Shown here piece after piece: positions 1 to 40,457 of a stretch of 64,000 bases of DNA. This DNA is from Acidobacteria bacterium bin61 (GTDB lineage Bacteria; Acidobacteriota; Vicinamibacteria; Marinacidobacterales; SMYC01), in contig CAUZCL010000008.1 of the NCBI GenBank assembly GCA_963578475.1, forward strand, positions 56,997-120,996, given 5' to 3'. Below the pieces are notes generated by a model. The model ran no database searches and was not told the DNA's origin. It saw only the letters and a program-made list of their open reading frames with translations. Position numbers and translations under genes: made by a program. The number at the start of each line of letters is the position of its first letter. Position 1 is the first letter of the stretch.

Positions 1-606
1 GGCTTCGAAATCGGTCGTCGCGTTCTCGATAAAGGCTCGATGCGTGAGACCGGATTTGATGATCTCGCGGGCGACCGCGTTCGCGAGGGCGATATCGGTG
101 CCGACATCGAGACCCAACCAGAGATCGGCCCACTGCGCTGAGCTCGTCCGCCGTGGATCGACCGTATACAGCTTTGCGCCGTTATGAATACCCTTCAAGA
201 TATGGTGGAAGAAGATAGGGTGCGCGTCGCGGGCGTTCGAGCCCCACAGGATGATGACATCCGTTTCTTCGAGCTCACGGTACGAGCTCGTACCCCCGCC
301 CGCTCCGAAAACTTTCGCCAGACCGGCGACGCTGGGAGCGTGTCACGTACGGTTGCAGCTATCGATATTGTTACTGCCCATGACGACGCGCGCGAACTTC
401 TCGGCCGTGAAGTTCATCTCGTTGGTCGACTTGGAGCAGCTGAAAAGCCCGAAGGACGTTCCGCGGCGGTCTTTGAAGCCCGCGGCGGCGCGCTCGAGCG
501 CCTCCCCCCAGCTCGCGCGACGGAGAGACCCGTTCTCGCGAACCATTGGATAGGTCAAACGTTTGTAACTTTTTCGCATGCCTTGCCTCGCGGAAGAGTT
601 TATCAC
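1..606 (-). CDS. Formate-dehydrogenase-type molybdopterin oxidoreductase alpha subunit with selenocysteine read-through at TGA 343-345. Partial: runs off the left edge. The canonical N-terminal Fe-S domain is not present upstream.
   Basis: Minus ORF 343..606 (...FTAEKFARVVMGSNNIDSCNRT) stops at TGA 343-345. The same frame stays open to position 1 as U-HAPSVAGLAKVFGAGGGTSSYRELEETDVIILWGSNARDAHPIFFHH...LYTVDPRRT. This is the C-x-R-x-[C/U]-H-x-x-S-V-A-G-L active-site block of FdhF/FdhA-type enzymes. Upstream of GTG 604-606 (ATG 577-579) the frame closes near 705 without any Cys-cluster domain. Confidence 0.75.
301..345 (-). promoter_or_regulatory. Bacterial SECIS-like hairpin immediately 3' of the UGA
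   Basis: Minus-strand RNA: UGA CACGCUCCCAGCGUCGCCGGUCUGGCGAAAGUUUUCGGAGCG. The outer stem is CGCUCC/GGAGCG and the apical stem is CGCC/GGCG, closing a GGUCU loop. The GGU begins 21 nt after the UGA, which resembles the fdhF-type SECIS as I recall it. Confidence 0.6.
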
Positions 607-16531: not shown

Positions 16532-17650
16532 TCAGGAAATGTCAGAGCCGAAGGCGTACAGAATGCCGTCCTGCGAGCCGATGACGACCCGTCCATCGGC
16601 GAGCGCGGGGGAGGCGCCGAACGGAGCGCCCGCGTCGAACTGCCACAACTTCTCGCCGGTCGTGAGCTCGAAAACGTAGAAGCGGCCGTCACCCGAGCCG
16701 ATATAGACGCGGTTGCCCGCGATGACGGGAGAGGACTCGACGCGCGCGCCCGTACGGTAGGTCCAGAGAGAGGCGCCCGATTCTTGATCAATCGCGTGCA
16801 CAATCTTGTCACGGCCGCCGATGACGACGACGCCATTCGCTACCGCCGGGGAGGAATAGAAAGGGAAGTGGCGGATCGGGTGCTCATACCGCCAGAGGTA
16901 CTCTTTGTTCTTCAAATCGACCGCAAGCACGTCGTTGTTGAACGTTCCGTAATAAGCTATACCGTCGACGAGAGCCGGAGAGGAAGCCGTATAAGCGCCT
17001 GAGTTCAACTGCAGCTTCTCGGTGCCATCTTCGAGATCGATGCCGCGCAACAGGGCGTCGCATCCCGTTACGTAAACGAGCTCGCCGTCAAATCCGGGCG
17101 TGCTGTGAAGAGGCCCGAGGCTTTCAAAGGTCCACTGAAGCTCGCCCGTCTTGCGGTCGAGCGAGTATAGGTGCTCGTCATAGGACGCGATGAGCACACG
17201 GTTACCAATGACGACCGGAGAGGCTTTGATTTCCGCGCCGGTCTCGAACGTCCAGCGGGTCTCGCCGTTCGCTGTGTCAAAAGCGTGCACGACGCCGAGC
17301 AAGTCGCCGACATAGACGGTGCCGGCGATCACCATAGGCGAGGATTCGCCAAAGCGGTCCTCCTCCTCGCCGAAATCGCGCTTCCAGAGGACCGAGCCGT
17401 CGTCGAGGGCGAGCGCAGCGACGAGCCCTGGCAGTGCGGTCATATAAACGACGTTGTCGACGATGGCGGCGGAGGAGTCGATGGAAAAGCCGGCCTCGAA
17501 GCTCCAGAGAAGCGTCAGCTCGTCGGGGATCTCGGCGGCAGAGCGTCCCGTGCGCATTGGGCTTCCGCGAAACTGATTCCACGTGTCTTTCGGCGCGACG
17601 GTCTCTTGCGACGCGACCGCCAACAAAGCGAGGACACTCAGTAGGCGCAT
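16532..17650 (-). CDS. PQQ-like (BamB-type) beta-propeller repeat protein P1, secreted
   Basis: Signal MRLLSVLALLAVAS. The mature N-terminus has the WNQFRG motif shared by all six paralogs. Repeated blades of the type G.vy.g..dg.l.A.d..tG...W. Confidence 0.85.
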   Translation of the reverse strand: MRLLSVLALLAVASQETVAPKDTWNQFRGSPMRTGRSAAEIPDELTLLWSFEAGFSIDSSAAIVDNVVYMTALPGLVAALALDDGSVLWKRDFGEEEDRFGESSPMVIAGTVYVGDLLGVVHAFDTANGETRWTFETGAEIKASPVVIGNRVLIASYDEHLYSLDRKTGELQWTFESLGPLHSTPGFDGELVYVTGCDALLRGIDLEDGTEKLQLNSGAYTASSPALVDGIAYYGTFNNDVLAVDLKNKEYLWRYEHPIRHFPFYSSPAVANGVVVIGGRDKIVHAIDQESGASLWTYRTGARVESSPVIAGNRVYIGSGDGRFYVFELTTGEKLWQFDAGAPFGASPALADGRVVIGSQDGILYAFGSDIS

Positions 17651-18750
17651 CGGTAAATCTCCAGAGCGGCCGCTTCGTCGAAGGGCCGCGGGTTAAAGTG
17701 TCCCGTCCACTGCTTCGTGGCGGCGTGGGCGAGGCTCGGAAGGTCTTCTTCCAGGATGCCGTCATCACGAAGGCGCCGCGGAAGACCTCCGAGCTCGGCA
17801 AGCTCTTCTAGGCGGCTCGCGAGCGACTCGCCATCTTGGTGGAGCGCCGCGTAAGCCTGTACCACCGTATCCGCGTTGAAGCGCACCACGCTCGGCAAGC
17901 ACATCGCGATGGCGCGTCCATGGGCGGTTCCATAGCGCTGGGTGAGGGGGTTCGCGCAGGCATGGGTGGCGCCGAGCATCGAGTTCTCGATGGCGACCCC
18001 TGCATAGAAAGCACCGAGCTGCATCGCGCTTCGAGCTTCGAGGTCTTCGGGCTCCTCAAGAACGCGGGCGTAGTTTCCCACGAGCAATCGAAAAGCCTCC
18101 CGGGAGTAGAAATCGGACAAGGCGTTTCTCTTCGTGGTCACTGCGGTCTCGACAGCATGGGCAAGGGCATCGTAGCCCGTGATTGCCGTGACCGCCGTCG
18201 GCTGTGTTACGGTGAGCTCGGGGTCGAGAATCGCTATGCGAAAGCGCGAGGAGAGATCGGAGCAGGCCATCTTCACATGCGTCTTCGCGTCCGAGATGAG
18301 CGCGTAGGATTGCGCCTCGCTCCCGGTCCCGGCCGTCGTCGGGACGCCAATCATGGGGAGAAGCGGCTTCTTGTTCTTTGCGAAGCCGACATAGTCGCGT
18401 ATGACACCGCCATTGGTGAGGACAAAATTGACGCCCTTGGCGCAATCCATCGAGCTTCCTCCACCGAAGCCGATGAACGAATCGACGTTCTTCGACGACG
18501 CGAAGGCGCGTCCCCGCTCGACCATGTCGGTGTCGGGGTTCTCTGTGAAATCGCCGAAGACGAAGACTTCGATCCCGACGCGCGCAAGCAAGCCGAGGGC
18601 GCGATCAACATGGGGCGTCGCGAGAAGTCCGGGGTCGGCCGCCAACATCGTACGTTCAAAGCCGAGCTCTTTCGCGAGCTCGCCTAGGCGCTCGAGAGCG
18701 CCGCGGCCAAACACAACCCGCGGCTCGGGTCGGTAGTCGAAAGATTTCAT
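17638..18750 (-). CDS. Iron-containing (group III) alcohol dehydrogenase, no signal peptide
   Basis: GFGGGSSMDCAKG, PTTAGTGSE, GYDALAHAVE, GATHACANPL. The stop overlaps the P1 start by 13 nt, and the start lies 3 nt after the P2 stop. Confidence 0.9.
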   Translation of the reverse strand: MKSFDYRPEPRVVFGRGALERLGELAKELGFERTMLAADPGLLATPHVDRALGLLARVGIEVFVFGDFTENPDTDMVERGRAFASSKNVDSFIGFGGGSSMDCAKGVNFVLTNGGVIRDYVGFAKNKKPLLPMIGVPTTAGTGSEAQSYALISDAKTHVKMACSDLSSRFRIAILDPELTVTQPTAVTAITGYDALAHAVETAVTTKRNALSDFYSREAFRLLVGNYARVLEEPEDLEARSAMQLGAFYAGVAIENSMLGATHACANPLTQRYGTAHGRAIAMCLPSVVRFNADTVVQAYAALHQDGESLASRLEELAELGGLPRRLRDDGILEEDLPSLAHAATKQWTGHFNPRPFDEAAALEIYRCAY

Positions 18751-18753
18751 GCT

Positions 18754-20184
18754 CTATTCGTTGGCGAGCGCGAACAGCTGATTTCGGCTCGCGATATATA
18801 AAACGCCGTGCGCGGGAACCGCTGTCCCGTAGACGGAGCTCCCGAGGTTCATCTCGACGAGAACTTTTTCTTCTTTGCCTGGCGCAAGGACGACGACATC
18901 GCCGTCTTCGTCCCCGAGATAGATCTTGCCATCGACGACCATGGGCGACGACCAGACGGCCGCGAAGGTGTCGTGCACCCAATACGGCTCTCCTGTCTCG
19001 ACGTTCAGCGCATGGAAGAAACCGCTGAAATCCGGCATATAGATGATGCCTTCATGGATCGCCGGCGTCGAGATCGAGCGGCGGATCTTGTCGTAATGCC
19101 AGACGCGGCCGCTTTGGGTGATGTCGCCGCGCTTGGTCGCGTCGATAGCGTAGAAGTGCCCCACGCCCTCGCCGTGCTCCGGGTCCTGACCGTTTGCGAT
19201 ATAGACCTTGTCGTTGTAGATCACGGGAGTGCTGATGATGTTGTTGCGTGTTTTCGGCCAGGTAGTGCCGGGCGGGTTGCTGTCGAACACCCACAGCTTT
19301 TCGCCGGTCTCGGCTAAGTAGCCGCGCACCCAGCCGTCGCCTTCGCCCATTACGACTTGAACAACGCCTCCGATCTCACCGACAGCGGCCGAGGACCACT
19401 GCCCGTGAAGTATTTTCTCTCCCACGGGGTTGTTCTCCCACACGAGCTCGCCCGTGTTCTTGTTGATGGCTACCAGGTCGGGGCTCAGCGGAGAGGGGAT
19501 ATTTACGTGGCTTTCGTCATGTCCGTTCGAAGTGTTCACGAAAATCAAGTCGCCATACATCACGGGCGACGAGTTCGACATGTTGTGCGGGAAGGCCCCG
19601 AGCTCTTCCATCATGTCGAACTTCCAGATGATGTCTCCGTCCTGCGGGCTCTTGTACTGCTCGTCCTGATAGGGCCCGTCGTTCTCGCCGTCGAGAAAGC
19701 CCTCGGTGTCGAGCGCGAGCACTTCGCCTCTGTTGGTGACGTAGTAGAGCACGTCACCGTCGACGAGCGGCGAGGAGCAAACGCCTTGGAACGGCCAATC
19801 GTTGACGCGGCCCGCGGGATGCTTGTCGGTGACCATTTGCCACAAGAATTTACCGTCGGCCTCATTGATCGCGACGAGAATGCCTTTGTCTCCCGGCATC
19901 TCTTTGTCATAAAGCGCCTCGTTGTTCGTTCCGACAAAGACTTTGCCGTTAGATACAACGGGGTTCCCATAGGTCTGTGAGCCGAGCGCGGCGACCCATT
20001 TCACGTTGGTGCCGGCATTGACATCCCACTCGAGGGGAAGACCGGTCATCGAGGACACCATGTTGCGATCGGCGCTGCCGCCCCACATGGTCCAATTGCC
20101 GTCCTTTGAATTCTCAGCGTAGACGTCGAGGGTTACCATGATCGCTAAAACGGAAAGTGCGGTTGCCCAAACGAGCTTTTTCAT
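18754..20184 (-). CDS. PQQ-like beta-propeller repeat protein P2, secreted
   Basis: ATG 20182-20184 (AGGAAG upstream) gives MKKLVWATALSVLAIMVTLDVYA, then WTMWGG. Propeller blades throughout. Confidence 0.85.
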   Translation of the reverse strand: MKKLVWATALSVLAIMVTLDVYAENSKDGNWTMWGGSADRNMVSSMTGLPLEWDVNAGTNVKWVAALGSQTYGNPVVSNGKVFVGTNNEALYDKEMPGDKGILVAINEADGKFLWQMVTDKHPAGRVNDWPFQGVCSSPLVDGDVLYYVTNRGEVLALDTEGFLDGENDGPYQDEQYKSPQDGDIIWKFDMMEELGAFPHNMSNSSPVMYGDLIFVNTSNGHDESHVNIPSPLSPDLVAINKNTGELVWENNPVGEKILHGQWSSAAVGEIGGVVQVVMGEGDGWVRGYLAETGEKLWVFDSNPPGTTWPKTRNNIISTPVIYNDKVYIANGQDPEHGEGVGHFYAIDATKRGDITQSGRVWHYDKIRRSISTPAIHEGIIYMPDFSGFFHALNVETGEPYWVHDTFAAVWSSPMVVDGKIYLGDEDGDVVVLAPGKEEKVLVEMNLGSSVYGTAVPAHGVLYIASRNQLFALANE

Positions 20185-20195
20185 CTTCCTGCCTT

Positions 20196-22385
20196 TCATT
20201 CGTTGGCGCGTACTTCGAGATTGTCGATAAACACTTCGGTCGGCAAGGCGTCGGCGAAGATGCCGGGACTTCCTTGCCGGCTCGGGTTCTCGTCGCGCCG
20301 CTCGATTTGCCACTCAGAGGGCTCGACCTCCCCGCGTAGCCATACTTTGCCGCGAGCGCGGACGGAGCCGTCCTCGAGCGTGGCGACTTCGAGCTTCATT
20401 CGATACCACGTGTCCGGCTCCCATTTGAACGAGACTCTAGCGGTGCGCTCGGTCTCGGGCTGCCACGACTGAAGCTCGAGCCGCTGATGGCTTCCGAGAA
20501 GCATCAAGAGATAACGCTGCGCGATAAGGCCGGCATGTCCCATTTGGCGGCGCTGCCTCGTGGCAAGAACGTCCGCTTGCACCGTGTAGTCGGACCAGTC
20601 CGAAGGTCCCAGGAACACGCGCGCGCGGTGCAGAAAAGGATTGTCGGCCTTCTTCACGAGCACCTTTTCGCCATCGACCTCGCGGATCTCGAACTTTCCC
20701 GTAGCGTTGATCCACGGCCGCGGAACATTCTCGAGCACGTCGAAATTCTCGCTCCATGGAAGAGGCGGGATCACGCGCGCGCGGGCCGAGCCCGATAGCA
20801 CGCCCAGGCTCGCGTGGATCTTTCCACCTTGGGGCGTCGAGCCGCGGGCCGCGGTGAAGCGCCCGCCCTCGACCGTCCCATCCAGACCTTCGAGGGACCA
20901 CGTGGCTTCGCCGATCCGCGCGACCCGTAAGAAACGTCCGGCCGCGTTGAACAGACGCGCTTCGAGCTCGACGGTGCCACCGGGCTCGAGTGTTACGTCT
21001 GTGGGCGCGACTTGAATCCAAGTCGGCGCGCCGGGTGTACCGCTCGGAGCGGTGGGTGGCGGCGGCACCGCTGATTCCTTGCGCGCCGACCCGATCGCGT
21101 AGAGCGCCTGCGCCGAGGCCAGATAGACGCGGCCATCCGCAATCGCGACCGAGGCGTAAATCTCTTCGAACTCGTCGCCGGCGGTCAGCTCCTCTCGGTC
21201 ACGGATCACAGCACCATCGGCCTGAAGCTCCAAAATGTAGAACGTGCCGTTGACGGTGCCGACATAGAGCTTGCCGTCGGCGAGAACCGGCGACGCGCGC
21301 TGGATGGTGCCGAGGTTCAAGGTCCATTCTTCGGCGCCACTCACCACATCGAACGCTTTGAGGTTGGCGCTGTTGTCGAGCTGGTAGAAGCGGTCGCCGT
21401 CGAGGACGGGGGACGAATAGCCGCCAAGAAAGCCGCCCACGGACCATTTCGCGCTGTCGACGTCGATGGAGCCGCGCATGGTCGCATCGATCGCTGCCAC
21501 GAGACCCATCTGGCTCGTGCGAAGGTTCTCCTCGCCCTGGCTCACGATTGCGATGTTGCCCTTGAGGATAGCGCCGGTGTTGATGCCGCGCTTGGAATAT
21601 TCGAAGCGCCACACCGACTCGCCCGTCTGAGGCATGATCGCGTGCATCGCTCCATCGCCGCCTCCCGTGATGAGAAGTCGCACACCTCCGACGTCGGCGA
21701 TGACAGGCGGCGCGTAGGTCGTGTCATAAGGGCGCCCACCGGGAGAGCTGACCCATTGTGTTTCCCCCGTGGTTTTGTCGAAAGCGAAGAAACGCTGGCC
21801 GCCGCGAGCTTGCTCGCCCCACCCCGAGCTCAGACCGCTCACGATGAGCAGGTTGCCGTCGATGATAGGTGAGGCGGTGCGGCCGCCATGGGTCGTGATG
21901 AGGCCGAAGTCTTCGGCAAGCGAGCGCTCCCACAAAACGGCGCCGTCGGCGCTGAACGCGTACACAGAGCCTCCGACGGTATAAACAAAGATGTTGCCCG
22001 TTATCGGGTCCGCGACCGGGGAGGCCCAGCCTACGCGGTGAGGCGGTACGTCGCTCAAGTAGATGTTCATGCGATGCTCCCACAAGAGCTCGCCCGTCTC
22101 GACATCGAGACACATGATGCGCTCCTGCAGGCTCGCGCCTTCTCCAGCAGCGTTTTGCAGATAGATGTGGTCGCCGAGAATGATGGGCGTCGAGCGGCCG
22201 CCATAGGGAGCCCGCCAAGCGAGATTCTCGCCATCGCGAGACCAGCTCGTGGGAAGGCCGGTCTCCGCGGAACGGCCGTCTCGGCTCGGGCCTCGCCAAT
22301 CCGTCCAGTCTTCACTGGATGAGCCTGCGAAAGATCCTGCCCCTATGAACGTCACGAAGATCGTGAAGAGAGTTTTTCTGAACAT
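20196..22385 (-). CDS. PQQ-like beta-propeller P3 fused to a C-terminal Ig-like domain and a concanavalin/DUF1080-like jelly-roll (tentative), secreted
   Basis: ATG 22383-22385 gives MFRKTLFTIFVTFIGAGSFAGSS, then WTDWRGPSRDG. The propeller runs to about aa 500. It is followed by VAPTDVTLEPGGTVELEARL (Ig-like) and PWINATGKFEIREVDGEKVLV...WYRMKLEV...VFIDNLEV (beta-sandwich). Confidence 0.8.
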   Translation of the reverse strand: MFRKTLFTIFVTFIGAGSFAGSSSEDWTDWRGPSRDGRSAETGLPTSWSRDGENLAWRAPYGGRSTPIILGDHIYLQNAAGEGASLQERIMCLDVETGELLWEHRMNIYLSDVPPHRVGWASPVADPITGNIFVYTVGGSVYAFSADGAVLWERSLAEDFGLITTHGGRTASPIIDGNLLIVSGLSSGWGEQARGGQRFFAFDKTTGETQWVSSPGGRPYDTTYAPPVIADVGGVRLLITGGGDGAMHAIMPQTGESVWRFEYSKRGINTGAILKGNIAIVSQGEENLRTSQMGLVAAIDATMRGSIDVDSAKWSVGGFLGGYSSPVLDGDRFYQLDNSANLKAFDVVSGAEEWTLNLGTIQRASPVLADGKLYVGTVNGTFYILELQADGAVIRDREELTAGDEFEEIYASVAIADGRVYLASAQALYAIGSARKESAVPPPPTAPSGTPGAPTWIQVAPTDVTLEPGGTVELEARLFNAAGRFLRVARIGEATWSLEGLDGTVEGGRFTAARGSTPQGGKIHASLGVLSGSARARVIPPLPWSENFDVLENVPRPWINATGKFEIREVDGEKVLVKKADNPFLHRARVFLGPSDWSDYTVQADVLATRQRRQMGHAGLIAQRYLLMLLGSHQRLELQSWQPETERTARVSFKWEPDTWYRMKLEVATLEDGSVRARGKVWLRGEVEPSEWQIERRDENPSRQGSPGIFADALPTEVFIDNLEVRANE

Positions 22386-22500
22386 GTCTGGTTTATGCTT
22401 TCGTGAACCGATGCCTGAATCCGTCCTAGAGGACCCTATTATCTTTTTCTGGGTGTGCGGCGTCAAAGAAATGGCCGGCGCCTGGAACTTTAGCTTGAAC

Positions 22501-22518
22501 AAACCTGAGACCAGGTTT
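22501..22518. promoter_or_regulatory. 18-bp palindrome AAACCTG-agac-CAGGTTT in the divergent promoter region between the two propeller operons
   Basis: Read directly. It lies in the 209-bp gap between start 22385 (-) and start 22595 (+). Confidence 0.3.
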
Positions 22519-22594
22519 CTGGAGTGGGCCCTTATGGAGTACGATTGCGTAGTCACAGAAAGGGAGTGCCTGTGAGGCGCTCGGCTGCCACTTC

Positions 22595-23992
22595 ATGCGT
22601 TTTGTCTTCGCTGTTCTCATCCTTGTCCTTCCCTCGACGCTTCTCGCCTCCGAATGGTCGCGTTTTCGCGGGCCGAACGGAACCGGCGTCGTCGACACCG
22701 ACAAGCTTCCGCTTCACTTCGGTCCGTCCCAAAACGTTGTGTGGAAGACGCCACTTCCTCCCGGACATTCGTCTCCAATCCTCACCGAAGAAAGGATCTT
22801 CCTGACGGCGTTCGAAGACGAGACTCTCTTCACTTATTGTATCGATCGCGGAACCGGCGAGATCTTGTGGCGAAGAGAAGCACCCCGCACACGCGTCACG
22901 GATTTCGACGCCCGCAATAACTCCGCATCGCCGAGCCCTGTGGTCGACGACAAGAGCGTTTTCGTCTTTTTTTCCGACTTTGGACTTCTTGCCTATGACT
23001 TCGAAGGCGAGGAACTCTGGCGATTCGCCGTCGAAGACTTCGACAACATTTACGGGATGGGGGCCTCGCCCATCCTCGCGGGCGACCACGTCGTCCTCGT
23101 ATGCGACCAGGCCACGAACTCCTACATCATCGCGCTCGACAAGAGGCGTGGGAAAGTCGTCTGGCGAAAGCGCCGCCCCGAAGCCAAGAGCGGTCACTCG
23201 ACGCCCGTGCTCCACGAGACCAAGGACGGATTACTCGAGATCCTGGTCCCCGGTTCGTTTCTTCTGACCTCCTACGCCGCCAAGACCGGTGAGAAGCTTT
23301 GGTGGGTGAGCGGTCTTTCGTTCGAGATGAAGTCGACGCCCGTTCTCGCCGGCGACATGCTATACATCAACGGCTATGGTGCGCCGGAGAACCAACCAGG
23401 GCGCGACGTCGTGGCCGCTCCGTTTACGGAGGTCGAGCCGAACGGTGATGGATTGCTTACTCAAGAGGAGGCCACGGGACATGTGCGCTCGTGGTTTGGC
23501 TTCGTTGACCTGAACGCTGACGGGCGCCTCGACGCGGCCGAGTATGACTACTACGTCGCGGCGCTCGCGTCGAAGAACGGTATTCTCGCGGTCCGCATAG
23601 GCGGTGAAGGCGACATGACGGAGCACAACGTGGTGTGGACCTATCACAAGCGTGTCCCCCAGCTCCCGTCGCCTCTTTTTTATTGGGATGTTCTGTACAT
23701 GGTGAATGACGGCGGGATCGTCACGACGCTCGAGCCAGAAACAGGGAGCATCATCGCGCAGGGACGCCTCAAAGGCGCCGTCGACAACTATTACGCCTCG
23801 CCCGTCGCGGCGGACGGCAAGATCTTCATGGCGAGCCAGCTCGGGAAAGTCGCGGTGCTCAGTCCTGCGGGCGATCTGGAAGTGCTGGCGGTCAATGACC
23901 TCGACGATTTGATCCACGCAACACCTGCCATTGGCGACGGGCGCCTGTACATACGCACCCGCAACACGCTCTATTGCTTTGGGCGAGAGTGA
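22595..23992 (+). CDS. PQQ-like beta-propeller P4 with an inserted EF-hand pair, secreted
   Basis: MRFVFAVLILVLPSTLLASE, then WSRFRGPNGTG. The insert EPNGDGLLTQEE...DLNADGRLDAAEYD (nt 23435-23548) matches the DxNxDGxIxxxE loop. Confidence 0.85.
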   Translation: MRFVFAVLILVLPSTLLASEWSRFRGPNGTGVVDTDKLPLHFGPSQNVVWKTPLPPGHSSPILTEERIFLTAFEDETLFTYCIDRGTGEILWRREAPRTRVTDFDARNNSASPSPVVDDKSVFVFFSDFGLLAYDFEGEELWRFAVEDFDNIYGMGASPILAGDHVVLVCDQATNSYIIALDKRRGKVVWRKRRPEAKSGHSTPVLHETKDGLLEILVPGSFLLTSYAAKTGEKLWWVSGLSFEMKSTPVLAGDMLYINGYGAPENQPGRDVVAAPFTEVEPNGDGLLTQEEATGHVRSWFGFVDLNADGRLDAAEYDYYVAALASKNGILAVRIGGEGDMTEHNVVWTYHKRVPQLPSPLFYWDVLYMVNDGGIVTTLEPETGSIIAQGRLKGAVDNYYASPVAADGKIFMASQLGKVAVLSPAGDLEVLAVNDLDDLIHATPAIGDGRLYIRTRNTLYCFGRE

Positions 23993-23994
23993 GC

Positions 23995-26127
23995 ATGTTC
24001 TGGCTTGTAGCGCTCCTCCTTATCCAAAACGGTGAGGACCTCCACGAAGCCGCGCGGCGAGGCGATCTTGCGAGAGCGTGGGCACTCATCGAGCAAGGCG
24101 TCGACGTCAATGCGCGGAATCGCTATGGCGCGACGGCACTTTTCTTCGCTGCAGAAAAAGGCGACCTCGACATGGTGACGCTCCTCGTGGAGCACGGAGC
24201 ACGCCTCGACATTGAAGACAGCTTCTACAACATGAGCGCGCTCAGCCGTGCTTTGAGCGGTGAGCATTTCGACGTCGCGCGGTTTCTACTCTCTCGCGGC
24301 TCGCCGGGCGCGGACGCCGTTCTACATGTGGGCGTCGCGAACGAGGACCAGGCGCTCGTCGAGGCTGCTCTCGCGGGAGACTTAACACGCCCAGCCTTCG
24401 ACCGCGCTCTAGCGATTGCGGCGGGAGACGTTCGCGCACTTCTCGAGGCCGCCAAAGCTCCAGCCGGCGCACCCGCCGCGCCCGTAGAGCTCTCGCCGGT
24501 AGAGCTCTCGCGCGAGGAGCTCGAGCGCTTTACCGGCGGCTATGAAAATGAATCCGAGCGTCGGTCTCTCACGATTGCTCTACGTGACGGGGCGCTCGAA
24601 GTGTCGGGAGATCTTTCCGTGCGGCTTCGTCCGAAAGGCGAGCAACGCTTCGAAGTTATCGGCAGCGACGCCGAAGTCTTTTTTGGAGGCCGTGGCGGTA
24701 TGATTGAGCGCCTCGTCCTTCGCCAGGGCGAGACCTCCACTACCTTTCGCCCGCTCGACGAATCGGAGGCTCGTGGGGAGGCGGCTCCTGTCGACAACCC
24801 GAACGTCGTCGTTTCGACAGACGTTGCCAGCTCCGCCCGCGCGCCGGCCGCTCCGTGGCCAGGATTCCGCGGTCCGAACCGATCCGGTATTGCGGACGGG
24901 CAGGGCGTGCCGATCGAGTGGGATGCCGAGACAGGGAAGCACATCCGTTTCAAAACAGAGCTTCCGGGCTTCAGCGTGTCGAGCCCGGTCATTTGGGGCG
25001 AGCGCATCTTTGTTTTGACCGCGGTAAGCGGCGCCGGGAACGACACCTTTCGGACCGGCCTCTACGGGGACGTCACTCCGGTGGAAGATCTCTCAGAGCA
25101 TCGCTGGCTTCTCTACGCCTTGAGCACCACGGACGGTGCGATTGTCTGGGAGCGCGAGCTTCACAGGGGTGAGCCGGGAACGAAGCGGCATCCCAAGTCG
25201 AGCCAAGCCAATGCGACGCCGGTGACGGACGGCAAGCACGTCGTGACCGTGCTCGGCTCGGTCGGTCTCTTGCTTTGCTACGACGTCGACGGAAACCTTC
25301 TCTGGAAGAAAGACATCGGAGTCCTCAACGCAGGCTGGTTCTACGATCCGGATTATCAGTGGGGGCACTCAAGCTCGCCCATTATCTACGGCGACACAGT
25401 GATTCTGCAGGCGGACCTCCACAACGGATCGTTTCTCGCCGCCTATGACCTCGATAGCGGGGAAGAAGTCTGGCGAACGCCGCGGGACGAGGTTATCCCG
25501 ACATTCAGCACCCCGGCGGTGTATCACGGCGAGATGCGCGATGAGCTCATCACCAACGGCACCGTGATCCGCGGCTACGACCCCAAGACGGGCGAGCTTC
25601 TCTGGTTTCTCGGCCCCAACTCCGAAATCCCGATCGGCGTGCCCGTGGTAACCGAAGATCTCATCTACGTAACCGCGGGCTACCCGCCCATCCGACCCAT
25701 CTATGCCATCCGTCCAGGAAGCCGCGGAGACCTCGCGCTGCCCGAAGGTGTCGACAAGAGCGAAGCACTCGCGTGGAGCAAGAACCGCGGCGGCACCTAC
25801 ATACCGTCTCCACTCGTCTATCGCGGACACTTCTACACGAACGCCAATAATGGCCGCTTGACGTGCTACGACGCGGTGACGGGGGAGCGCGTCTACCGCG
25901 CACGCATTGGTGGTGTCGGCGGCTCCTACGCGGCATCGCCGGTGGCCGCGGATGGACGTCTCTACTTCACTAACGAGGAAGGGGACACCTTCGTCGTGCG
26001 TGCAGGAGATGAGTACGAGCTTCTCGCAAAAAACGGCGTGGACGGGACGGTGCTATCCACGCCCGCAGCTTCGAACGGGCTTCTAGTCATCCGCACGCTA
26101 ACGCATGTATACGGGATTTCCGAATAA
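23995..26127 (+). CDS. Ankyrin repeats + small beta domain (DUF3471-like, tentative) + PQQ-like beta-propeller P5
   Basis: ATG 23995 lies 2 nt after the P4 stop. ANK repeats: LHEAARRGDLARAWALIEQGVDVNARNRYGATALFFAAEKGDLDMVTLLVEHGA. Linker domain: FTGGYENESERRSLTIALRDGALEV...ERLVLRQGETSTTFRPL. Then WPGFRGPNRSG and propeller blades. Confidence 0.8.
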   Translation: MFWLVALLLIQNGEDLHEAARRGDLARAWALIEQGVDVNARNRYGATALFFAAEKGDLDMVTLLVEHGARLDIEDSFYNMSALSRALSGEHFDVARFLLSRGSPGADAVLHVGVANEDQALVEAALAGDLTRPAFDRALAIAAGDVRALLEAAKAPAGAPAAPVELSPVELSREELERFTGGYENESERRSLTIALRDGALEVSGDLSVRLRPKGEQRFEVIGSDAEVFFGGRGGMIERLVLRQGETSTTFRPLDESEARGEAAPVDNPNVVVSTDVASSARAPAAPWPGFRGPNRSGIADGQGVPIEWDAETGKHIRFKTELPGFSVSSPVIWGERIFVLTAVSGAGNDTFRTGLYGDVTPVEDLSEHRWLLYALSTTDGAIVWERELHRGEPGTKRHPKSSQANATPVTDGKHVVTVLGSVGLLLCYDVDGNLLWKKDIGVLNAGWFYDPDYQWGHSSSPIIYGDTVILQADLHNGSFLAAYDLDSGEEVWRTPRDEVIPTFSTPAVYHGEMRDELITNGTVIRGYDPKTGELLWFLGPNSEIPIGVPVVTEDLIYVTAGYPPIRPIYAIRPGSRGDLALPEGVDKSEALAWSKNRGGTYIPSPLVYRGHFYTNANNGRLTCYDAVTGERVYRARIGGVGGSYAASPVAADGRLYFTNEEGDTFVVRAGDEYELLAKNGVDGTVLSTPAASNGLLVIRTLTHVYGISE

Positions 26128-26168
26128 GCGCTAAAGTTCCCCGGGACGTTCTGGAGGTAAACGAACGA

Positions 26169-27425
26169 ATGAAGGCGTTACCCTTACTCATAGTCGTGAC
26201 GACACTCGTAAGCTCCGTACTCGCCGAGGACTGGCCGCAATGGCGGGGGCCCACGGGCGACGGCATCAGCGGCGAGACCGGACTTCCTAGTGTCTGGAGC
26301 ACGACGAAGAACGTCGCGTGGCGGATCCCCATGCCCGACCGTACCGGCGCGACGCCCATCATCTGGGGCGAGACCGTTTTCCTGAACGTGGCCGGTGGAG
26401 GCGAGCTCCATCTTTGGGCGCTCGACCGCAAGGACGGACGCATCAAGTGGAAGAAGTTTCTGAGCGGCGGCGATCACCGCGAGCGCAAACAAAACATGTC
26501 ATCGCCGTCGCCGGTAACGGATGGCAAGCACGTTTGGGTGATGACGGGGACCGGCATCTTGAAGTCCGTCGACTTCGACGGCAATGAGCTCTGGTCGCGC
26601 AACATCCCGGCTGATTACGGTAAGTTCGGCCTCAACTGGGGCTATGCATCGTCGCCGCTTCTGTTCCAAGGCGCACTCTACTTGCCCGTGCTGCACGGCA
26701 TGAAGACCGACGAGCCGTCTTATCTCTTGCGCATCGACGCCGCAACGGGAAAGACGGTCTGGCGGGTCGAGCGGTTGACGGACGCCATCCGCGAATCCCC
26801 GGATGCCTACATCACGCCCGCGCTTCTGGAATATGACGGCAAGCACGAGATCGTACTAACGGGCGGTGACGTCGTGACTGGCCACGACCTAGAGACGGGC
26901 AGAGAGCTTTGGAGAGCCGATGGGCTCAACCCGAACAACGATCGTAATTACCGCATCATCGCCTCTCCGGTCGTCATGGACGGCATCATCTACGCACCGA
27001 CCCGCGTGCGCCCCATGCTCGCCCTCAAAGCGGGAGGCCGCGGCGACATCACGACGAGCCATCTGCTGTGGACCTTCAACAATGGTCCAGACGTTCCGAC
27101 ACCCGTTACGGACGGCAAGTATCTCTATGTCGTGAACGACCGCGGCGTGACGTTCAATCTCGATGCGAAGACCGGCGAGGTCATTTGGGGTTCGAAGCGT
27201 ATCGCGGCTGGAACCTACAGCTCGTCGCCCGTGCTCGCGGACGGGAAGGTCTACATAACGAACGAAGACGGGGTGACCACGGTCATGAAGGCGGGAGCCG
27301 AGTTCGGCGTGATCGCGGAGAACGATCTCGAGAGCTACACGTTGAGCTCCGTCGCCGTTTCCCAAGGGCAACTGTTCTTGAGGAACGCCGATTTTCTTTA
27401 TTGTATTGGCGACAGGCGTCCCTAG
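26169..27425 (+). CDS. PQQ-like beta-propeller repeat protein P6, secreted
   Basis: [21 protein letters not shown], then [11 protein letters not shown]. Propeller blades throughout. Confidence 0.85.
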
Positions 27426-33962: not shown

Positions 33963-34017
33963 TCCTAGCCAGGTAAACCTGAAAGCGTTCTAAATCCAAA
34001 CCTTAGAGCTGACTCTC

Positions 34018-34101
34018 ATCCCCACATCCCCTTGCCTTTAAAAACGCCGCTAAAAGCAAGGAGAGGTGGGGATAGGAGGGGATAGGAGGGGATGTGGGGA
34101 T
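34018..34101 (+). repeat. GGGGAT repeat array: 14-bp inverted repeat plus four phased G4 tracts (G-quadruplex motif)
   Basis: ATCCCCACATCCCC (34018-34031) is the exact reverse complement of GGGGATGTGGGGAT (34088-34101). GGGG-ATAGGA-GGGG-ATAGGA-GGGG-ATGT-GGGG spans 34068-34099. An inner hairpin CCTTGCCTTTA...TAAAAGCAAGG spans 34029-34061. Confidence 0.8.
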
Positions 34102-34205
34102 AAGAAAGAACTTGCTCCAGAACATGGAACAGAATCCTCGGTTCTGACGGTTAAGAGGTTAGTTAGTTAGTACTTTTCGGGGTGGGGGATACTGTAAGAT
34201 GTCGA

Positions 34206-34832
34206 ATGATGCCGCTCATTTCACTGGCTGACCAGGAAAAGCTCCGAACGGAGCTCGCGAACAAGCTTGCAAGCCCCGTTAGTGTCGAGCTCGAGCGGCA
34301 TGCGCGCGACAAGAACTGCAAGCCTTGCGAGCAAAGCGAGGAGCTGCTCCGGGAAATCACGGCGCTGTCGACAACGCTCACGCTTCACACCCGTCTCACC
34401 ACTTCGGAGCTCGCTCCGGCGATCCGCCTCGTCGGCAAGGCTCGGGGGCAGGTTCGGTTTCTGGGCGTTCCAGCGGGGTACGAACTTCCAAGTTTGATCG
34501 AAGCGCTCGTGGACGTTTCACGAGGGCAGACGGAATTGAGTGAAACGGCGCGCGGCCAGCTGAACGCCCTGTCGCACCACGTTCAAGTCCGCGTCTTCAC
34601 GACCCCGACGTGACCGTTCTGCCCCGGAGTGAGCCGGTTGGCTCACCAGGCGGCGGTCGAAAGCCGCCAAGTCGACGCTGAAGTCGTGGAGATTACCGAG
34701 TTCCCGGATATCGCCCGGCGCCACGCGGTCACCAGTGTTCCCAAATTGGTGATCAACGATTCCGTGGAGTTTCTGGGTTCATTGACCGAGGAGCGGTTCA
34801 TAACCGCCTTGACCCTGGTTCCGCGCCAATAA
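34206..34832 (+). CDS. Two-domain thioredoxin-fold (glutaredoxin-like / PDO-type) protein, candidate selenoprotein with U-P-F-C (TGA 34611-34613)
   Basis: ORFs 34182..34613 and 34629..34832 share one frame and are separated only by TGA. Joined: ...NCKPCEQSEELL...VQVRVFTTPT-U-PFCPGVSRLAHQAAVESRQVDAEVVEITEFPDIARRHAVTSVPKLVIND. Here TGA replaces the first Cys of T-P-T-C-P-x-C-P. Confidence 0.7.
34611..34668 (+). promoter_or_regulatory. SECIS-like hairpins downstream of UGA 34611
   Basis: GUGAGCC-GGUU-GGCUCAC (34629-34646), with the stem starting 15 nt after the UGA and the apical GGU 22 nt after it. Then GGCGGC-GGUCGAAA-GCCGCC (34649-34668). Confidence 0.55.
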
Positions 34833-36749: not shown

Positions 36750-37274
36750 TTGATATTGTCGAAATGGTCGCGCCCGAAGCCCAACTCCCGCAAGGTGGAC
36801 GTCGTCGTCCGATCCGCTCGCACGCAGGACGCGGCATTCATTCGTTCCATGGCCCTAAACACCTTTCTCGCCTATGGCAGTTACGACCGCTACCTCGAAG
36901 ACTGGTTCAAAAACGCCGCCGTAACGACCTCCATAGCGGAGCTCGACGGACGAGCCGCAGGATTCTCCATGATCACCGCCTATGCCGATCCGGATCGTCC
37001 GCGAGAAAACGTCGCCGATCTCGTTGCCATCGCGGTCTCGAAGCCGCACCAGTCACGCGGCATCGGGGGCCAGCTTCTCGCTCATGCCCTCTCATTTGCG
37101 GAAAGCTCGCCGAGCAAGCCCCGTGAAGTCTGGCTCGTCGTCGCCGAGGACAACGCGTGCGCGCAACGCCTTTTTCGAAGCGCTGGTTTCCGCCTCGGAG
37201 AGGGTCTCGGAATCTATCCCTCGGGGCAGCGGGCGCTGCGAATGATAAAACCCTTCTCACGGGAGTCATCATGA
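36750..37274 (+). CDS. GNAT-family N-acetyltransferase
   Basis: VADLVAIAVSKPHQSRGIGGQLL (motif A, Q/R-x-x-G-x-G/A) ... ACAQRLFRSAGFRL. The start codon is uncertain (TTG 36750 or an internal GTG). Confidence 0.75.
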   Translation: MILSKWSRPKPNSRKVDVVVRSARTQDAAFIRSMALNTFLAYGSYDRYLEDWFKNAAVTTSIAELDGRAAGFSMITAYADPDRPRENVADLVAIAVSKPHQSRGIGGQLLAHALSFAESSPSKPREVWLVVAEDNACAQRLFRSAGFRLGEGLGIYPSGQRALRMIKPFSRESS

Positions 37275-38491
37275 AACTGGATCGCAGAGAGTTTTTAAGC
37301 ACGGCCGCGGCTACTGTCGCGGCCGCGAATAGCGCGAGCAGCTTTGAATCGTCGGCAAGCGCCGCTCTTGATTTCGGCCTGCGCGCGGATTTTCCGGCGG
37401 CCGCGAAATCGAACTACCTCAACACACCCTATATCGGCCCGCCTCCGCGCGCGGTCGAACAGGCGGGTATTGCCTTTGTGCGCTCGAAGTCCGAAGACCC
37501 CATCCTGCTCGGAGCGATGCTCGAGAAAGCGAACGAGGTGCGCCGGAGCTTCTCGTCTCTTTTCGGGGCCAAGCCCGAGGAGGTCTCGTTTCTCTTCGCG
37601 ACGAGCGAAGGCGAGAACATCGTTGCGGAAGCGCTCGACTTGAAGCCGGGGGACAACGTCGTCATCGACGATCTGCACTACGAGACGACCTACGTTTTGT
37701 ACAAGACGCTGGAGAAGACCAAAGGTATAGAGGTGCGTGTCGTGAATGCCGTCGACGGACGGGCTGACCCGGCACATTTCGAGCCCTATGTTGATGACAA
37801 GACCCGCGTGGTCTCCGTTTCCTGGGTGTCGCATCAAAATGGCTTCCGCCACAATCTCCGGGGGCTCTCTGATCTCGCTCACGCACATGGCGCGTATCTC
37901 TATGCGGACGCGGTCCAAGCGCTCGGCATGTTCGAAACGAACTTCCACGACGAAGGCGTAGACTTCTTGACTTCCGGCACCTACAAGTGGCTTTTCGCGA
38001 GCTATGGCGTCGCACCTTTCTATATTCGCGAAGAGCATCTCGATTGGGTCGTTCCCGACCGTTTGGGCTCGCTGTCGATTCGCGACACTCTGCCAAACTA
38101 CGAGTTCCGTCTCTACGAAACCGCGCGCAAATACGAATATGCAACGCTCGCGTTCGGTCCGCTCTATCAGCTCGGCGCCTCACTCGACTATCTCGCGAAG
38201 GTCGGATTGGGAAAGATCGAGGCCCACACGGTGGACCTCGCGCACGATTTGCAAAAGGGACTCCTCGATCAGGGACTTCTCGTGCGTACGCCCCAAGGGA
38301 ACAGGTCGAGCATTGTGTCCTTCGAGCACGGGAGAGACCCGAAAGCTGTAGAGTCGCTGTTCGAAAAAGAGAACATCAAAGTGAGCTTTCGTGAGAACGG
38401 TCGGATGATCCGCGCCGGGGCAGCGCTCTTCAATAGCAAGTCCGACATCGACCACCTACTCGATACCGTCAAGAAAATCGCCTCTCTATGA
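37271..38491 (+). CDS. Class-V aminotransferase-fold PLP enzyme with twin-arginine signal
   Basis: ATG 37271 overlaps the GNAT stop (ATGA). MKLDRREFLSTAAATVAAA. Motifs: SWVSHQNGFRH, DAVQALG, SGTYKWL (PLP Lys). Confidence 0.8.
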   Translation: MKLDRREFLSTAAATVAAANSASSFESSASAALDFGLRADFPAAAKSNYLNTPYIGPPPRAVEQAGIAFVRSKSEDPILLGAMLEKANEVRRSFSSLFGAKPEEVSFLFATSEGENIVAEALDLKPGDNVVIDDLHYETTYVLYKTLEKTKGIEVRVVNAVDGRADPAHFEPYVDDKTRVVSVSWVSHQNGFRHNLRGLSDLAHAHGAYLYADAVQALGMFETNFHDEGVDFLTSGTYKWLFASYGVAPFYIREEHLDWVVPDRLGSLSIRDTLPNYEFRLYETARKYEYATLAFGPLYQLGASLDYLAKVGLGKIEAHTVDLAHDLQKGLLDQGLLVRTPQGNRSSIVSFEHGRDPKAVESLFEKENIKVSFRENGRMIRAGAALFNSKSDIDHLLDTVKKIASL

Positions 38492-39597
38492 AACGCTACG
38501 CCGCCTACGATCCTCCGGAATATCAGAACTGGCGTCCCGATCCCGCCGTCATGGAAGAGTTCCGGACGCGCGTGATGCAGGACCCGACCCGCCGGAGTGT
38601 CGTATCCGCACTGACGCCGCCGCAACACCTCCGGCTCTACAAGGGTCTCGTACGTAATCGACTCCACGACATCGCGCTCAAGCGATGGGTCCGTCAGGGT
38701 GTCATCTCGAAAGCCTGGCTCGGAACGGGGGAAGAGGCCACGACTATCGGTGCGGTCCATGCACTCCAAAAAGGCGACATGGTCGGTCCGATGATCCGAA
38801 ACGCCGGTGCGTGTCATGAAATGGGCATGTCGATTGCGGACATGCTGCGCGCATATCTGGGCACGGAAGACTCGCCCTCGCGAGGCCGTGATATTCACTT
38901 CGGTGACTTGGTGAACGGTGTCGTCGCGCCCATCAGCATGGTCGGCGCGCTCGTTCCGGTTTGCGCTGGCCTAGCTCTGTCGTTCAAGCTTCAGAAAAAA
39001 GAGAATATCGCGCTCACATGGGTGGGTGACGGCACCACCTGCACTACTGCATTTCACGAAGGGATGATGTGCGCGAAATCATTGTCGCTGCCCCTCGTCG
39101 TCTTCGTGCAGGACAATCAGATAGCCCTCGGAACGCCGCGCGAGAGCCATAGCGCGGCGCCCATGGGACGGGTGGCAACAATTTATGCGGCGACGAAATA
39201 CATTTGCAACGGCAACAACGTTCTCGACGTCTATGCGACGACCGCGCTCGCGGCGGAGCTCGCTCGTCTCGGCGAGGGTCCGATCGTAGTGACCGCCAAA
39301 ACCTTCCGCATGGGCGGCCACGCCACCCATGACGAGGGAGAGTCCCGGAAGATTCTCCGTGAAGAGGCTTTCGCTTACTGGGGCAAGCGGGACCCGATCG
39401 GCATGTATGAGACATTTCTTGCCGAGTCCGATCTCGAGCTCGCGACCGATCTCTCGAACCGCGAAGTCCTCGAGCAGGCGGAGCAAGAGGTTCACGAGGA
39501 GGTCGAGGAAGCGGCGCGGCAAGCTCTCGAAAGCTCGAAGCACTCGATCCCGAATCCCGCCGAGCAACAGCTCGGTGTTTTTGCTGGAGTTTCATGA
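38488..39597 (+). CDS. Thiamine-diphosphate-dependent 2-oxoacid dehydrogenase E1 alpha subunit (no E1 beta adjacent)
   Basis: ATGA overlap with the upstream gene. Motifs: GTGEEATTIGA, GRDIHFG, WVGDGTTCTTAFHEGMMCAKSLSLPLVVFVQDNQIALGTP (GDG...N TPP motif), RMGGHATHD. Confidence 0.8.
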   Translation: MKRYAAYDPPEYQNWRPDPAVMEEFRTRVMQDPTRRSVVSALTPPQHLRLYKGLVRNRLHDIALKRWVRQGVISKAWLGTGEEATTIGAVHALQKGDMVGPMIRNAGACHEMGMSIADMLRAYLGTEDSPSRGRDIHFGDLVNGVVAPISMVGALVPVCAGLALSFKLQKKENIALTWVGDGTTCTTAFHEGMMCAKSLSLPLVVFVQDNQIALGTPRESHSAAPMGRVATIYAATKYICNGNNVLDVYATTALAAELARLGEGPIVVTAKTFRMGGHATHDEGESRKILREEAFAYWGKRDPIGMYETFLAESDLELATDLSNREVLEQAEQEVHEEVEEAARQALESSKHSIPNPAEQQLGVFAGVS

Positions 39598-40457
39598 CCG
39601 AACAACCCACCAATGTGATCGACGTCACCGACGAGACTTTCGAATCGGACGTGCTGGAGCAATCGCACCATCTTCCCATCGTCGTCGATTTCTGGGCGGA
39701 GTGGTGTGGGCCCTGCCGCGTGCTCGGCCCGACACTCGAGAAGCTCGCTTACGAGGGAAAAGGGAAGTTCTTGCTCGCTAAAGTCGACACCGACAGCGCT
39801 CAGCGGGTGGCGCAGAGTTTCGGTATCCAGAGCATTCCAACGGTGATCGCTTTTCGCGACGGCAAACTTGCAGCCAAGTTCTCGGGCGCTCTTCCCGAAG
39901 ACGCCGTACGCGAGTTTCTCGAGCGCTTGTTGCCGTCACCCACAGACGAAATCGTGGCGGAAGCGGACAAGCTTCGTGCGTCAGCGCCCGAGCAGGCGGA
40001 GCTGCTCTATCTGCGCGCACTCGAAATAGACGACGGTCATGTCGGTGCCCGCATTGGCCTCGCAGAGATACTGGCCGGGCGCGGCGAGCGTGACGAGGCG
40101 CAGGCGATTGTGGGAAACCTCCTGCCAGCAGCCGATGGGGAGGTGGAGCGGATCGCTCAATTGCAGTCGGAACTAGCGCTCGGAGGCGTCATATCGGAGT
40201 CGAGCGAAGAGGAGCTTCGCGAACGGCTCGCGGCAAATCCACGGGACACGAGTGTTTTGATGGAGCTCGGCCAAGTGCTCGCGGCGAACCGCCGCTATCC
40301 GGAGGCACTCGATTCATTCCTTCAAGCGGCCGAGGGCGACCGCGCGCTCGCGAACGGTGAGGCCAAGAAGCGGATGGTCGAAGTTTTTCATGTCGTCGGT
40401 GTCCGAAGCGCACTGGCCGACGACTATCGCAAAAAGCTCAGACGCCTGCTTTATTAA
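39594..40457 (+). CDS. Thioredoxin-domain + TPR-like co-chaperone (YbbN/CnoX family)
   Basis: ATGA overlap with the E1 alpha gene. VVDFWAEWCGPCRVLGP, IQSIPTVIAF, and a helical-repeat C-terminal half. Confidence 0.8.
   Translation: MTEQPTNVIDVTDETFESDVLEQSHHLPIVVDFWAEWCGPCRVLGPTLEKLAYEGKGKFLLAKVDTDSAQRVAQSFGIQSIPTVIAFRDGKLAAKFSGALPEDAVREFLERLLPSPTDEIVAEADKLRASAPEQAELLYLRALEIDDGHVGARIGLAEILAGRGERDEAQAIVGNLLPAADGEVERIAQLQSELALGGVISESSEEELRERLAANPRDTSVLMELGQVLAANRRYPEALDSFLQAAEGDRALANGEAKKRMVEVFHVVGVRSALADDYRKKLRRLLY

Follow-up and report, generated by a model that had tools for sequence, protein, structure and literature searches.

An in-frame TGA at positions 34611-34613 of a 64,000-nucleotide (64-kb) stretch of DNA from Acidobacteria bacterium bin61, the whole of which is called the window here, very probably encodes selenocysteine (Sec, U) at the C-terminal active site of a cytoplasmic protein disulfide oxidoreductase (PDO) with two thioredoxin folds (TIGR02187). 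This assignment draws on the reading frame, the homology of the protein, the pairing of Sec and Cys at one column of the orthologues, the translation of the region downstream of the TGA, and a helix resembling a selenocysteine insertion sequence (SECIS) that is specific to the TGA-bearing orthologues. The initial annotation of the window had put the gene forward as its second selenoprotein candidate, a proposal supported by the Sec/Cys pairs across 80 loci and by the enrichment of SECIS-like helices described below.

A two-domain disulfide oxidoreductase gene interrupted by TGA

Direct reading, the list of open reading frames (ORFs) and translation all gave a single frame from ATG 34206/34209 to TAA 34830-34832, in which the TGA is the sole interruption. 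The two same-frame ORFs parted only by this codon, on which the initial annotation was built, were thereby borne out. The ATG at 34209 was favoured over that at 34206 by the orthologues and by the alignment with the PDO of Pyrococcus furiosus (PfPDO; MGLIS vs MPLIS). Numbered from this start, the joined product begins MPLISLADQ, and the residues of the C-terminal redox motif are U135 and C138.

For the protein searches, the joined sequence was used with Cys put in place of the stop. A search of the PDB sequences returned PfPDO (1a8l) with an E-value of 1.7e-28, residues 2-202 aligning end-to-end with 1-221, and lower-ranking hits were the P. horikoshii PDO (1j08), further PDOs and AhpF, the latter through its N-terminal domain. 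On 1a8l, the TGA took the place of the leading Cys in the C-terminal CPYC (TPTCPYCP), and the C-K-P-C motif aligned with the N-terminal CQYC. Judged by these alignments, the product is one chain of two thioredoxin-fold units, collinear with 1a8l and 1j08 over residues 2-202. Both the two-domain PDO/glutaredoxin-like architecture and the placing of the stop at the nucleophilic Cys of a CxxC motif, as originally claimed, agree with this result; the N-domain C-K-P-C and the C-domain T-P-T-[TGA]-P-F-C-P and V-P-K were also all present in the region. The V-P-K of the cis-proline loop was invariant in an alignment of 14 sequences and matches the VPK of 1a8l.

The C-terminal unit matched Pfam Thioredoxin_3 (E-value 2.1e-18), and the full product matched model positions 4-206 of 209 of NCBIfam TIGR02187.2 (its name there is now PDO_seleno_TRX, "protein disulfide oxidoreductase") with 184.0 bits and an E-value of 2.2e-54, the trusted cutoff being 185. 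The same model was matched by all 14 Sec-form relatives tested, with a best E-value of 5.7e-81. In the N-unit of the window clade (34209-34610), approximately 7 residues are missing before the CxxC and approximately 10 at the helix preceding the cis-Pro, while the CxxC itself is kept. An assignment to AhpF (TIGR03140) was rejected: the product scored 60.9 bits where the cutoff is 502.9, its match spanned no more than model positions 12-188 of 515, and it ends at residue 207 with no flavoprotein module.

The active-site codon in orthologues and database fragments

A scan for orthologues in one genome per species gave 80 loci, and adding two contigs and the window brought the set to 83 sequences. 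The motif column was found in all but L015, L071 and L072, leaving 80 sequences, one of them a duplicate, as L001 and L003 are identical at the site. The active-site column was TGA in 32 sequences and TGC or TGT in the other 48. The TGA loci belonged to at least five bacterial phyla, comprising Acidobacteriota (Ca. Marinacidobacterales, Blastocatellia), Chloroflexota (Ktedonobacterales, Dehalococcoidia), Gemmatimonadota, Rokubacteria and Bacillota, and spanned 33-87% protein identity. The TGC/TGT loci included all archaea, together with Bipolaricaulota, Aminicenantes, WOR-3 and others. In a neighbour-joining tree, the Sec forms fell in bacterial clades with a few Cys forms nested within them, a pattern that fits the known switching between Sec and Cys. 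In contrast to the C-terminal site, the N-unit CxxC column of the relatives was always Cys and never Sec; every one of the 48 Cys loci had the motif, as did 29 of the 31 Sec loci whose N-terminus is intact, and the two that lacked it are the Rokubacteria loci.

The database search returned 31 homologues, of which 30 were fragments of 121-155 residues that matched the query over its first 58-65% only. Thirteen of the fragments were retrieved, and each terminated in ..T-[PEK]-T, and the lone full-length homologue (P0009) had TPTCPFCP at the column. Two of the encoding contigs (L001 and L002) showed the N-fragment followed, in frame past the TGA, by a Thioredoxin_3 fragment. L001 is also syntenic with the window, sharing a TonB receptor, MiaE, the selenoprotein gene, an S13 peptidase, a GNAT protein, a class-V aminotransferase and an E1 dehydrogenase. 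An exhaustive HMMER search was performed with a Blastocatellia N-fragment as the query, and the best 150 cluster representatives (50% identity) were examined. Among these, 78 stopped exactly at the last residue of the query, 72 of them with a ..[VTS]TP[T] terminus, and 55 extended at least 55 residues further, 31 of those with an explicit CPxC. The check for Cys or TGA in orthologues proposed in the initial annotation was answered by both codons, the database fragments ending at the column and the Cys orthologues running on.

The 201 nt after the TGA in the window were then set against those of its relatives, L001 and L004. The differences at codon positions 1, 2 and 3 numbered 6/1/16 and 5/2/17, respectively, and only 5-7 of the 67 residues changed. 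This bias towards third positions indicates that the part downstream of the TGA is translated and under purifying selection.

The same data bear on the possibility that the TGA is a true stop, the locus yielding a 134-aa N-unit and a separate 67-aa thioredoxin-like protein from GTG 34629. An ORF with this GTG start is present (34629-34832), and the Thioredoxin_3 fragments of L001 and L002 were annotated by gene callers. However, the codons from the TGA to the GTG encode the conserved in-frame P-F-C-P of the redox motif, so that a product starting at 34629 would be without the entire CxxC and the first beta-strand. The downstream starts that were called vary among loci, and the Cys orthologues are single chains. 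Some termination at the UGA would be expected under selenium scarcity, yet two separate products as the purpose of the locus are very improbable.

Downstream hairpins and the case for selenocysteine

The constraints applied to bacterial SECIS (bSECIS) elements were those of the Zhang and Gladyshev 2005 consensus model as drawn in Fig. 2 of PMC13188914: an apical loop of 3-9 nt, an upper stem of 4-16 bp, G[G|U] at the first two loop positions, 16-37 nt from the UGA to the loop, and a minimum free energy of -7.5 kcal/mol or lower. The first hairpin downstream of the TGA (34629-34646) satisfied every one of them, with a 4-nt loop, 7 bp, 22 nt and -11.4 kcal/mol. The background for this test was 3.5% of random window positions, and 58 of the 1623 TGA triplets passed. 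Given this rate, the hairpin taken alone is suggestive and not decisive.

Our version of the test was strict, requiring a perfect stem and counting the energy of the hairpin alone, and the 4-5-bp helices of other clades failed its energy term (-4.5 to -7.4 kcal/mol). The evidence for these short helices is consequently the contrast between Sec and Cys loci and not the energy filter. In most other Sec loci the helix reads GGCC-AGGUU-GGCC, with GG at positions 26-27 counted from the U of the UGA. A 4-bp stem with a GG loop was found in 22 of the 32 Sec loci, compared to 1 of the 48 Cys loci. A similar R-L/M-A-H peptide is encoded at the helix site by both groups; nevertheless, the Arg codon at +8 was AGG or CGG in 27/32 Sec loci vs 14/48 Cys loci, and at residue +7, 26/32 Sec forms had Ala, compared to Val in 43/48 of the Cys forms. 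To judge from these codons, the RNA element visibly constrains the protein sequence at the helix site. For the 5-bp helix named above, 90% of cells were paired, compared to at most 55% with slid partners. Its closing pair covaries (GC:20, AU:5, CG:2, GU:2), and each of its two columns is a synonymous third position in an Ala codon. Relative to the GGCC-AGGUU-GGCC of other Sec members of the family, the helix of the window clade is longer and one base off in register; in the window it has 7 bp and a GGUU loop, and an A-U pair of the window is an A-C mismatch in L001 and L004.

The initial annotation had offered two hairpins with GGU in their loops. Both exist and fold, but only the first is a credible SECIS. 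The second was rejected, as its loop begins 41 nt after the UGA (limit 37) and its conservation is poor: L001 retains it, but in the close relative L004 it is disrupted, and no other clade has it. It may add local stability in the window clade only.

Two further groups of loci stood out at the helix site. The TGT Cys-form orthologues L082:3445-3489 (Armatimonadota) and L017:3448-3492 (Ktedonobacteraceae) retain a SECIS-like helix, GGCC-(C/A)GG(C/U)U-GGCC, which suggests a recent replacement of Sec by Cys. The Rokubacteria Sec forms L054:3424-3468 and L064:3430-3474 are without the N-unit CxxC and have a different downstream hairpin, CCGGGC-CGUGC-GCCUGG; here the Sec codon may have arisen independently, or the hairpin may be a second type of SECIS.

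Sec use had also been suggested from a formate dehydrogenase (FDH)-type gene at the left edge of the window, and this gene proved real. Its site reads NNIDSCNRT[TGA]HAPSVAGL, which is the Sec site of formate dehydrogenases, and it is followed by an fdhF-like hairpin (Table 1). The G-G-U of this hairpin lies at positions 22-24 from the U of the UGA, which is also where the essential bases of the E. coli fdhF loop lie. Like the fdhF-type SECIS, the PDO hairpin is placed directly past the UGA inside the coding sequence and has a small apical loop opening with G-G-U. It differs in that its loop lies 22 nt after the UGA, compared to 18 nt for fdhF and the FDH-like gene of the window, and in having no bulged U; its role in SelB binding is predicted from sequence. 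A GCC-GGU..-GGC core is common to the FDH-like and PDO hairpins, and this likeness is what would be expected if one SelB serves both. The 5' end of the FDH-like gene abuts or overlaps a plus-strand phosphodiesterase ORF (546-2267).

As improbable as two separate products is a recoding of the UGA to a residue other than Sec, whether through read-through by a near-cognate Trp, Cys or Arg tRNA or through reassignment. Global reassignment of UGA is excluded by its use as the normal stop in 15 of the 30 Pfam-supported window genes, and the idea was rejected, TGA being the commonest genuine stop in the window. Also against a residue other than Sec, the site is the catalytic Cys column, a classic Sec/Cys pair, a SelB-type G-G-U loop stands at the proper distance, and the same window holds the FDH-type Sec site with its fdhF-like hairpin; what speaks for such a recoding is that no Sec machinery was seen in the 64 kb. 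Least likely of all is a pseudogene, in which a recent nonsense mutation or sequencing error turned TGC or TGT into TGA by a single base and left the downstream part untranslated, as the splitting of every database copy by gene callers might suggest, because the identical TGA in 32 diverged loci of several phyla, the purifying selection downstream and the intact P-x-C-P active site and cis-Pro V-P-K effectively refute it.

Decoding of the TGA as Sec accordingly remains the preferred reading, and the following points weigh against it. Neither selA, selB, selD nor a tRNA-Sec gene was found within the window, Pfam scans of 40 ORFs and fragments included. The FDH-like gene, used above as support, may be N-terminally truncated or a remnant; no N-terminal Fe4S4 domain was found upstream of the fragment in any minus-strand frame. 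Covariation in the helix is limited to one pair, RNAalifold run on 29 Sec loci gave a consensus of other weak pairs that lacked the minihelix, and Rfam gave no SECIS family either for the whole window at gathering thresholds or for 34500-34800 at E-values up to 10. The protein itself falls 1 bit under the trusted cutoff of TIGR02187, a shortfall that coincides with the two deletions in its N-unit. Finally, no thioredoxin reductase or peroxiredoxin gene was a conserved neighbour within 3.5 kb across the 80 loci, and the electron donor and substrates are therefore only assumed. Weak Rfam matches to Xoo5 and ALIL were set aside as chance.

From the features of the gene we infer the binding of SelB and actual Se incorporation, as well as a reductase and substrates, in the following scheme. 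The hairpin would display its GGUU loop 22 nt past the UGA, and SelB carrying Sec-tRNA(Sec) would bind it, so that the ribosome would insert Sec135 and not terminate. The selenolate of U135 would then attack a substrate disulfide to form a mixed selenenylsulfide, which Cys138 would resolve, leaving an intramolecular Se-S bond to be re-reduced by a flavoprotein of the thioredoxin reductase type with NAD(P)H. This catalysis is modelled on the archaeal pathway of thioredoxin reductase, PDO and Bcp peroxiredoxin, in which PDOs receive electrons from NADPH via thioredoxin reductase and hand them to Bcp peroxiredoxins (PMC7465337). Mutagenesis of SsPDO assigned its thiol-transferase activity to the C-terminal site (PMC7465337), and the Sec of the window protein sits in the equivalent site. 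Clustering of the neighbourhoods of the 80 loci gave no conserved partner gene, so that operon context offers no hint as to which reductase or substrate is involved.

Table 1. Positions in the window of the PDO gene, its motifs and hairpins, and the FDH-like Sec site
Feature	Position	Strand	Basis and remarks
Predicted selenoprotein coding sequence, complete; two thioredoxin-fold units of the PDO / AhpF-N-terminal-domain type	34209..34832	+	207 codons + stop; alternative ATG 34206
N-unit CxxC, C37-K-P-C40	34317..34328	+	translation, alignment
T-P-T-[TGA]-P-F-C-P	34602..34625	+	translation
In-frame TGA, predicted U135, opening the U-P-F-C redox motif of the C-unit (34611-34622)	34611..34613	+	
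Probable bacterial SECIS minihelix GUGAGCC-GGUU-GGCUCAC	34629..34646	+	folding; 7-bp stem, 22 nt from the UGA to the GGUU loop
Second hairpin GGCGGC-GGUCGAAA-GCCGCC	34649..34668	+	folding
V177-P178-K179, cis-proline loop of the C-unit thioredoxin fold	34737..34745	+	alignment
Sec-type TGA in FDH-like molybdopterin oxidoreductase gene (~579 down to 1, running off the window)	343..345	-	Pfam Molybdopterin, 4.6e-31
fdhF-like SECIS hairpin UCGCC-GGUCU-GGCGA	315..329	-	18 nt after the FDH UGA

Related systems, neighbouring genes and distribution

The gene does not found a new family: the family, its motif and its decoding mechanism are already established, and this gene adds a member. Sec-containing homologues of the AhpF N-terminal domain were first listed by Kryukov and Gladyshev 2004, with ABB15282.1 of Carboxydothermus hydrogenoformans as an example, and were found in 2006 in C. 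hydrogenoformans and Symbiobacterium thermophilum (PMC1794560). Its members carry a single Sec, placed in a UxxC motif of the C-terminal thioredoxin unit (PMC13188914, PMC9312934). In a 2026 review the family stands under the heading "Predicted with high confidence", apart from the families listed ahead, and is reported also from Asgard archaea. A full-text literature search on the family name returned catalogue and survey papers only. The statement in the initial annotation that no U-x-x-C member of the PDO type has been characterised holds in so far as the family is listed as predicted only; its hint of novelty was overstated, the family having been catalogued since 2004.

The window protein matches the TIGR02187 model of this family to within 1 bit of the trusted cutoff and shares with the family the UxxC with one Sec in the C-unit, the Sec/Cys pairing with Cys homologues and a bSECIS immediately downstream. 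It differs in the two N-unit deletions (~7 and ~10 residues) and in having U-P-F-C in place of the usual U-P-Y-C. Its host is an acidobacterium of the class Vicinamibacteria, Ca. Marinacidobacterales-like, whereas the hosts named in the literature on the family are Firmicutes, Symbiobacterium (listed under Actinobacteria) and Asgard archaea.

With the archaeal PfPDO (1a8l), PhPDO (1j08), ApPDO (2hls) and SsPDO, the protein has in common collinear full-length homology, two thioredoxin folds, a CxxC-type site in each unit and the cis-Pro loop. The archaeal proteins have Cys at both sites and hyperthermophilic hosts, whereas the window protein is bacterial, from a marine acidobacterial lineage, is predicted to use Sec and has an N-unit shorter by about 20 residues. 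Similarity to the N-terminal domain of AhpF (1zyn, 1hyu) extends to the tandem thioredoxin folds, residues 19-194 aligning to 15-187, and to a redox CxxC at a roughly equivalent position of the second fold. The window protein is without the C-terminal FAD/NADH module of AhpF, which resembles thioredoxin reductase, and AhpF is not known to have a CxxC in its first fold.

Other features of the window were recorded around the gene. The upstream intergenic region (34013-34105) contains G-rich direct repeats (GGGGATAGGA-like) at 34059-34105 and inverted-repeat pairs formed by 34013-34040 with 34051-34078 and by 34014-34032 with 34087-34105. Between 2.5 and 5 kb downstream lie a class-V aminotransferase gene (37157-38491), cysteine-desulfurase-like and with a twin-arginine-like N-terminus, and a gene for a thioredoxin-TPR protein of the YbbN/CnoX-like type (39594-40457); no link of either gene to the selenoprotein was established. 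Further upstream, at 16532-27425, six PQQ_2 / beta-propeller paralogues form a run, one of them fused to ankyrin repeats; an iron-containing alcohol dehydrogenase gene (17638-18750) breaks this run. In L001, a comparable cluster adjoins the orthologous gene.

PDOs have been described as exclusive to thermophiles (PMC7465337). Among the loci of the scan (L003-L082), TIGR02187-type genes of both the Sec and the Cys form occurred in metagenome-assembled genomes (MAGs) of many lineages not known to be thermophilic, among them Blastocatellia, Ktedonobacterales, Nitrososphaeria and Micrarchaeota, and about half of the 50%-identity clusters near the query, within the best 150 representatives, were TGA-truncated. 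It is conceivable, though on balance we doubt it, that the Sec form predominates across large, mostly mesophilic and often aerobic lineages (Blastocatellia, Vicinamibacteria, Ktedonobacteria, Gemmatimonadota, Rokubacteria) and is not a rarity of a few anaerobes or thermophiles. If true, it would be among the commoner bacterial selenoproteins other than FDH, and the confinement of PDOs to thermophiles would be contradicted; this is a matter of distribution and not of kind. The Marinacidobacterales variant with its trimmed N-unit could be a functionally shifted minimal form.

The find opens no new biological question. It marks the host acidobacterial lineage as a very probable Sec decoder and provides a second, compact example of a probable SECIS beside the fdhF-like one in the same genome. 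Its practical meaning lies in annotation: the gene, like dozens of its orthologues in public MAGs and protein databases, is split into a 134-151-aa fragment and a Thioredoxin_3 fragment of ~70 aa, so that proteomes and selenoproteome counts lack the active protein.

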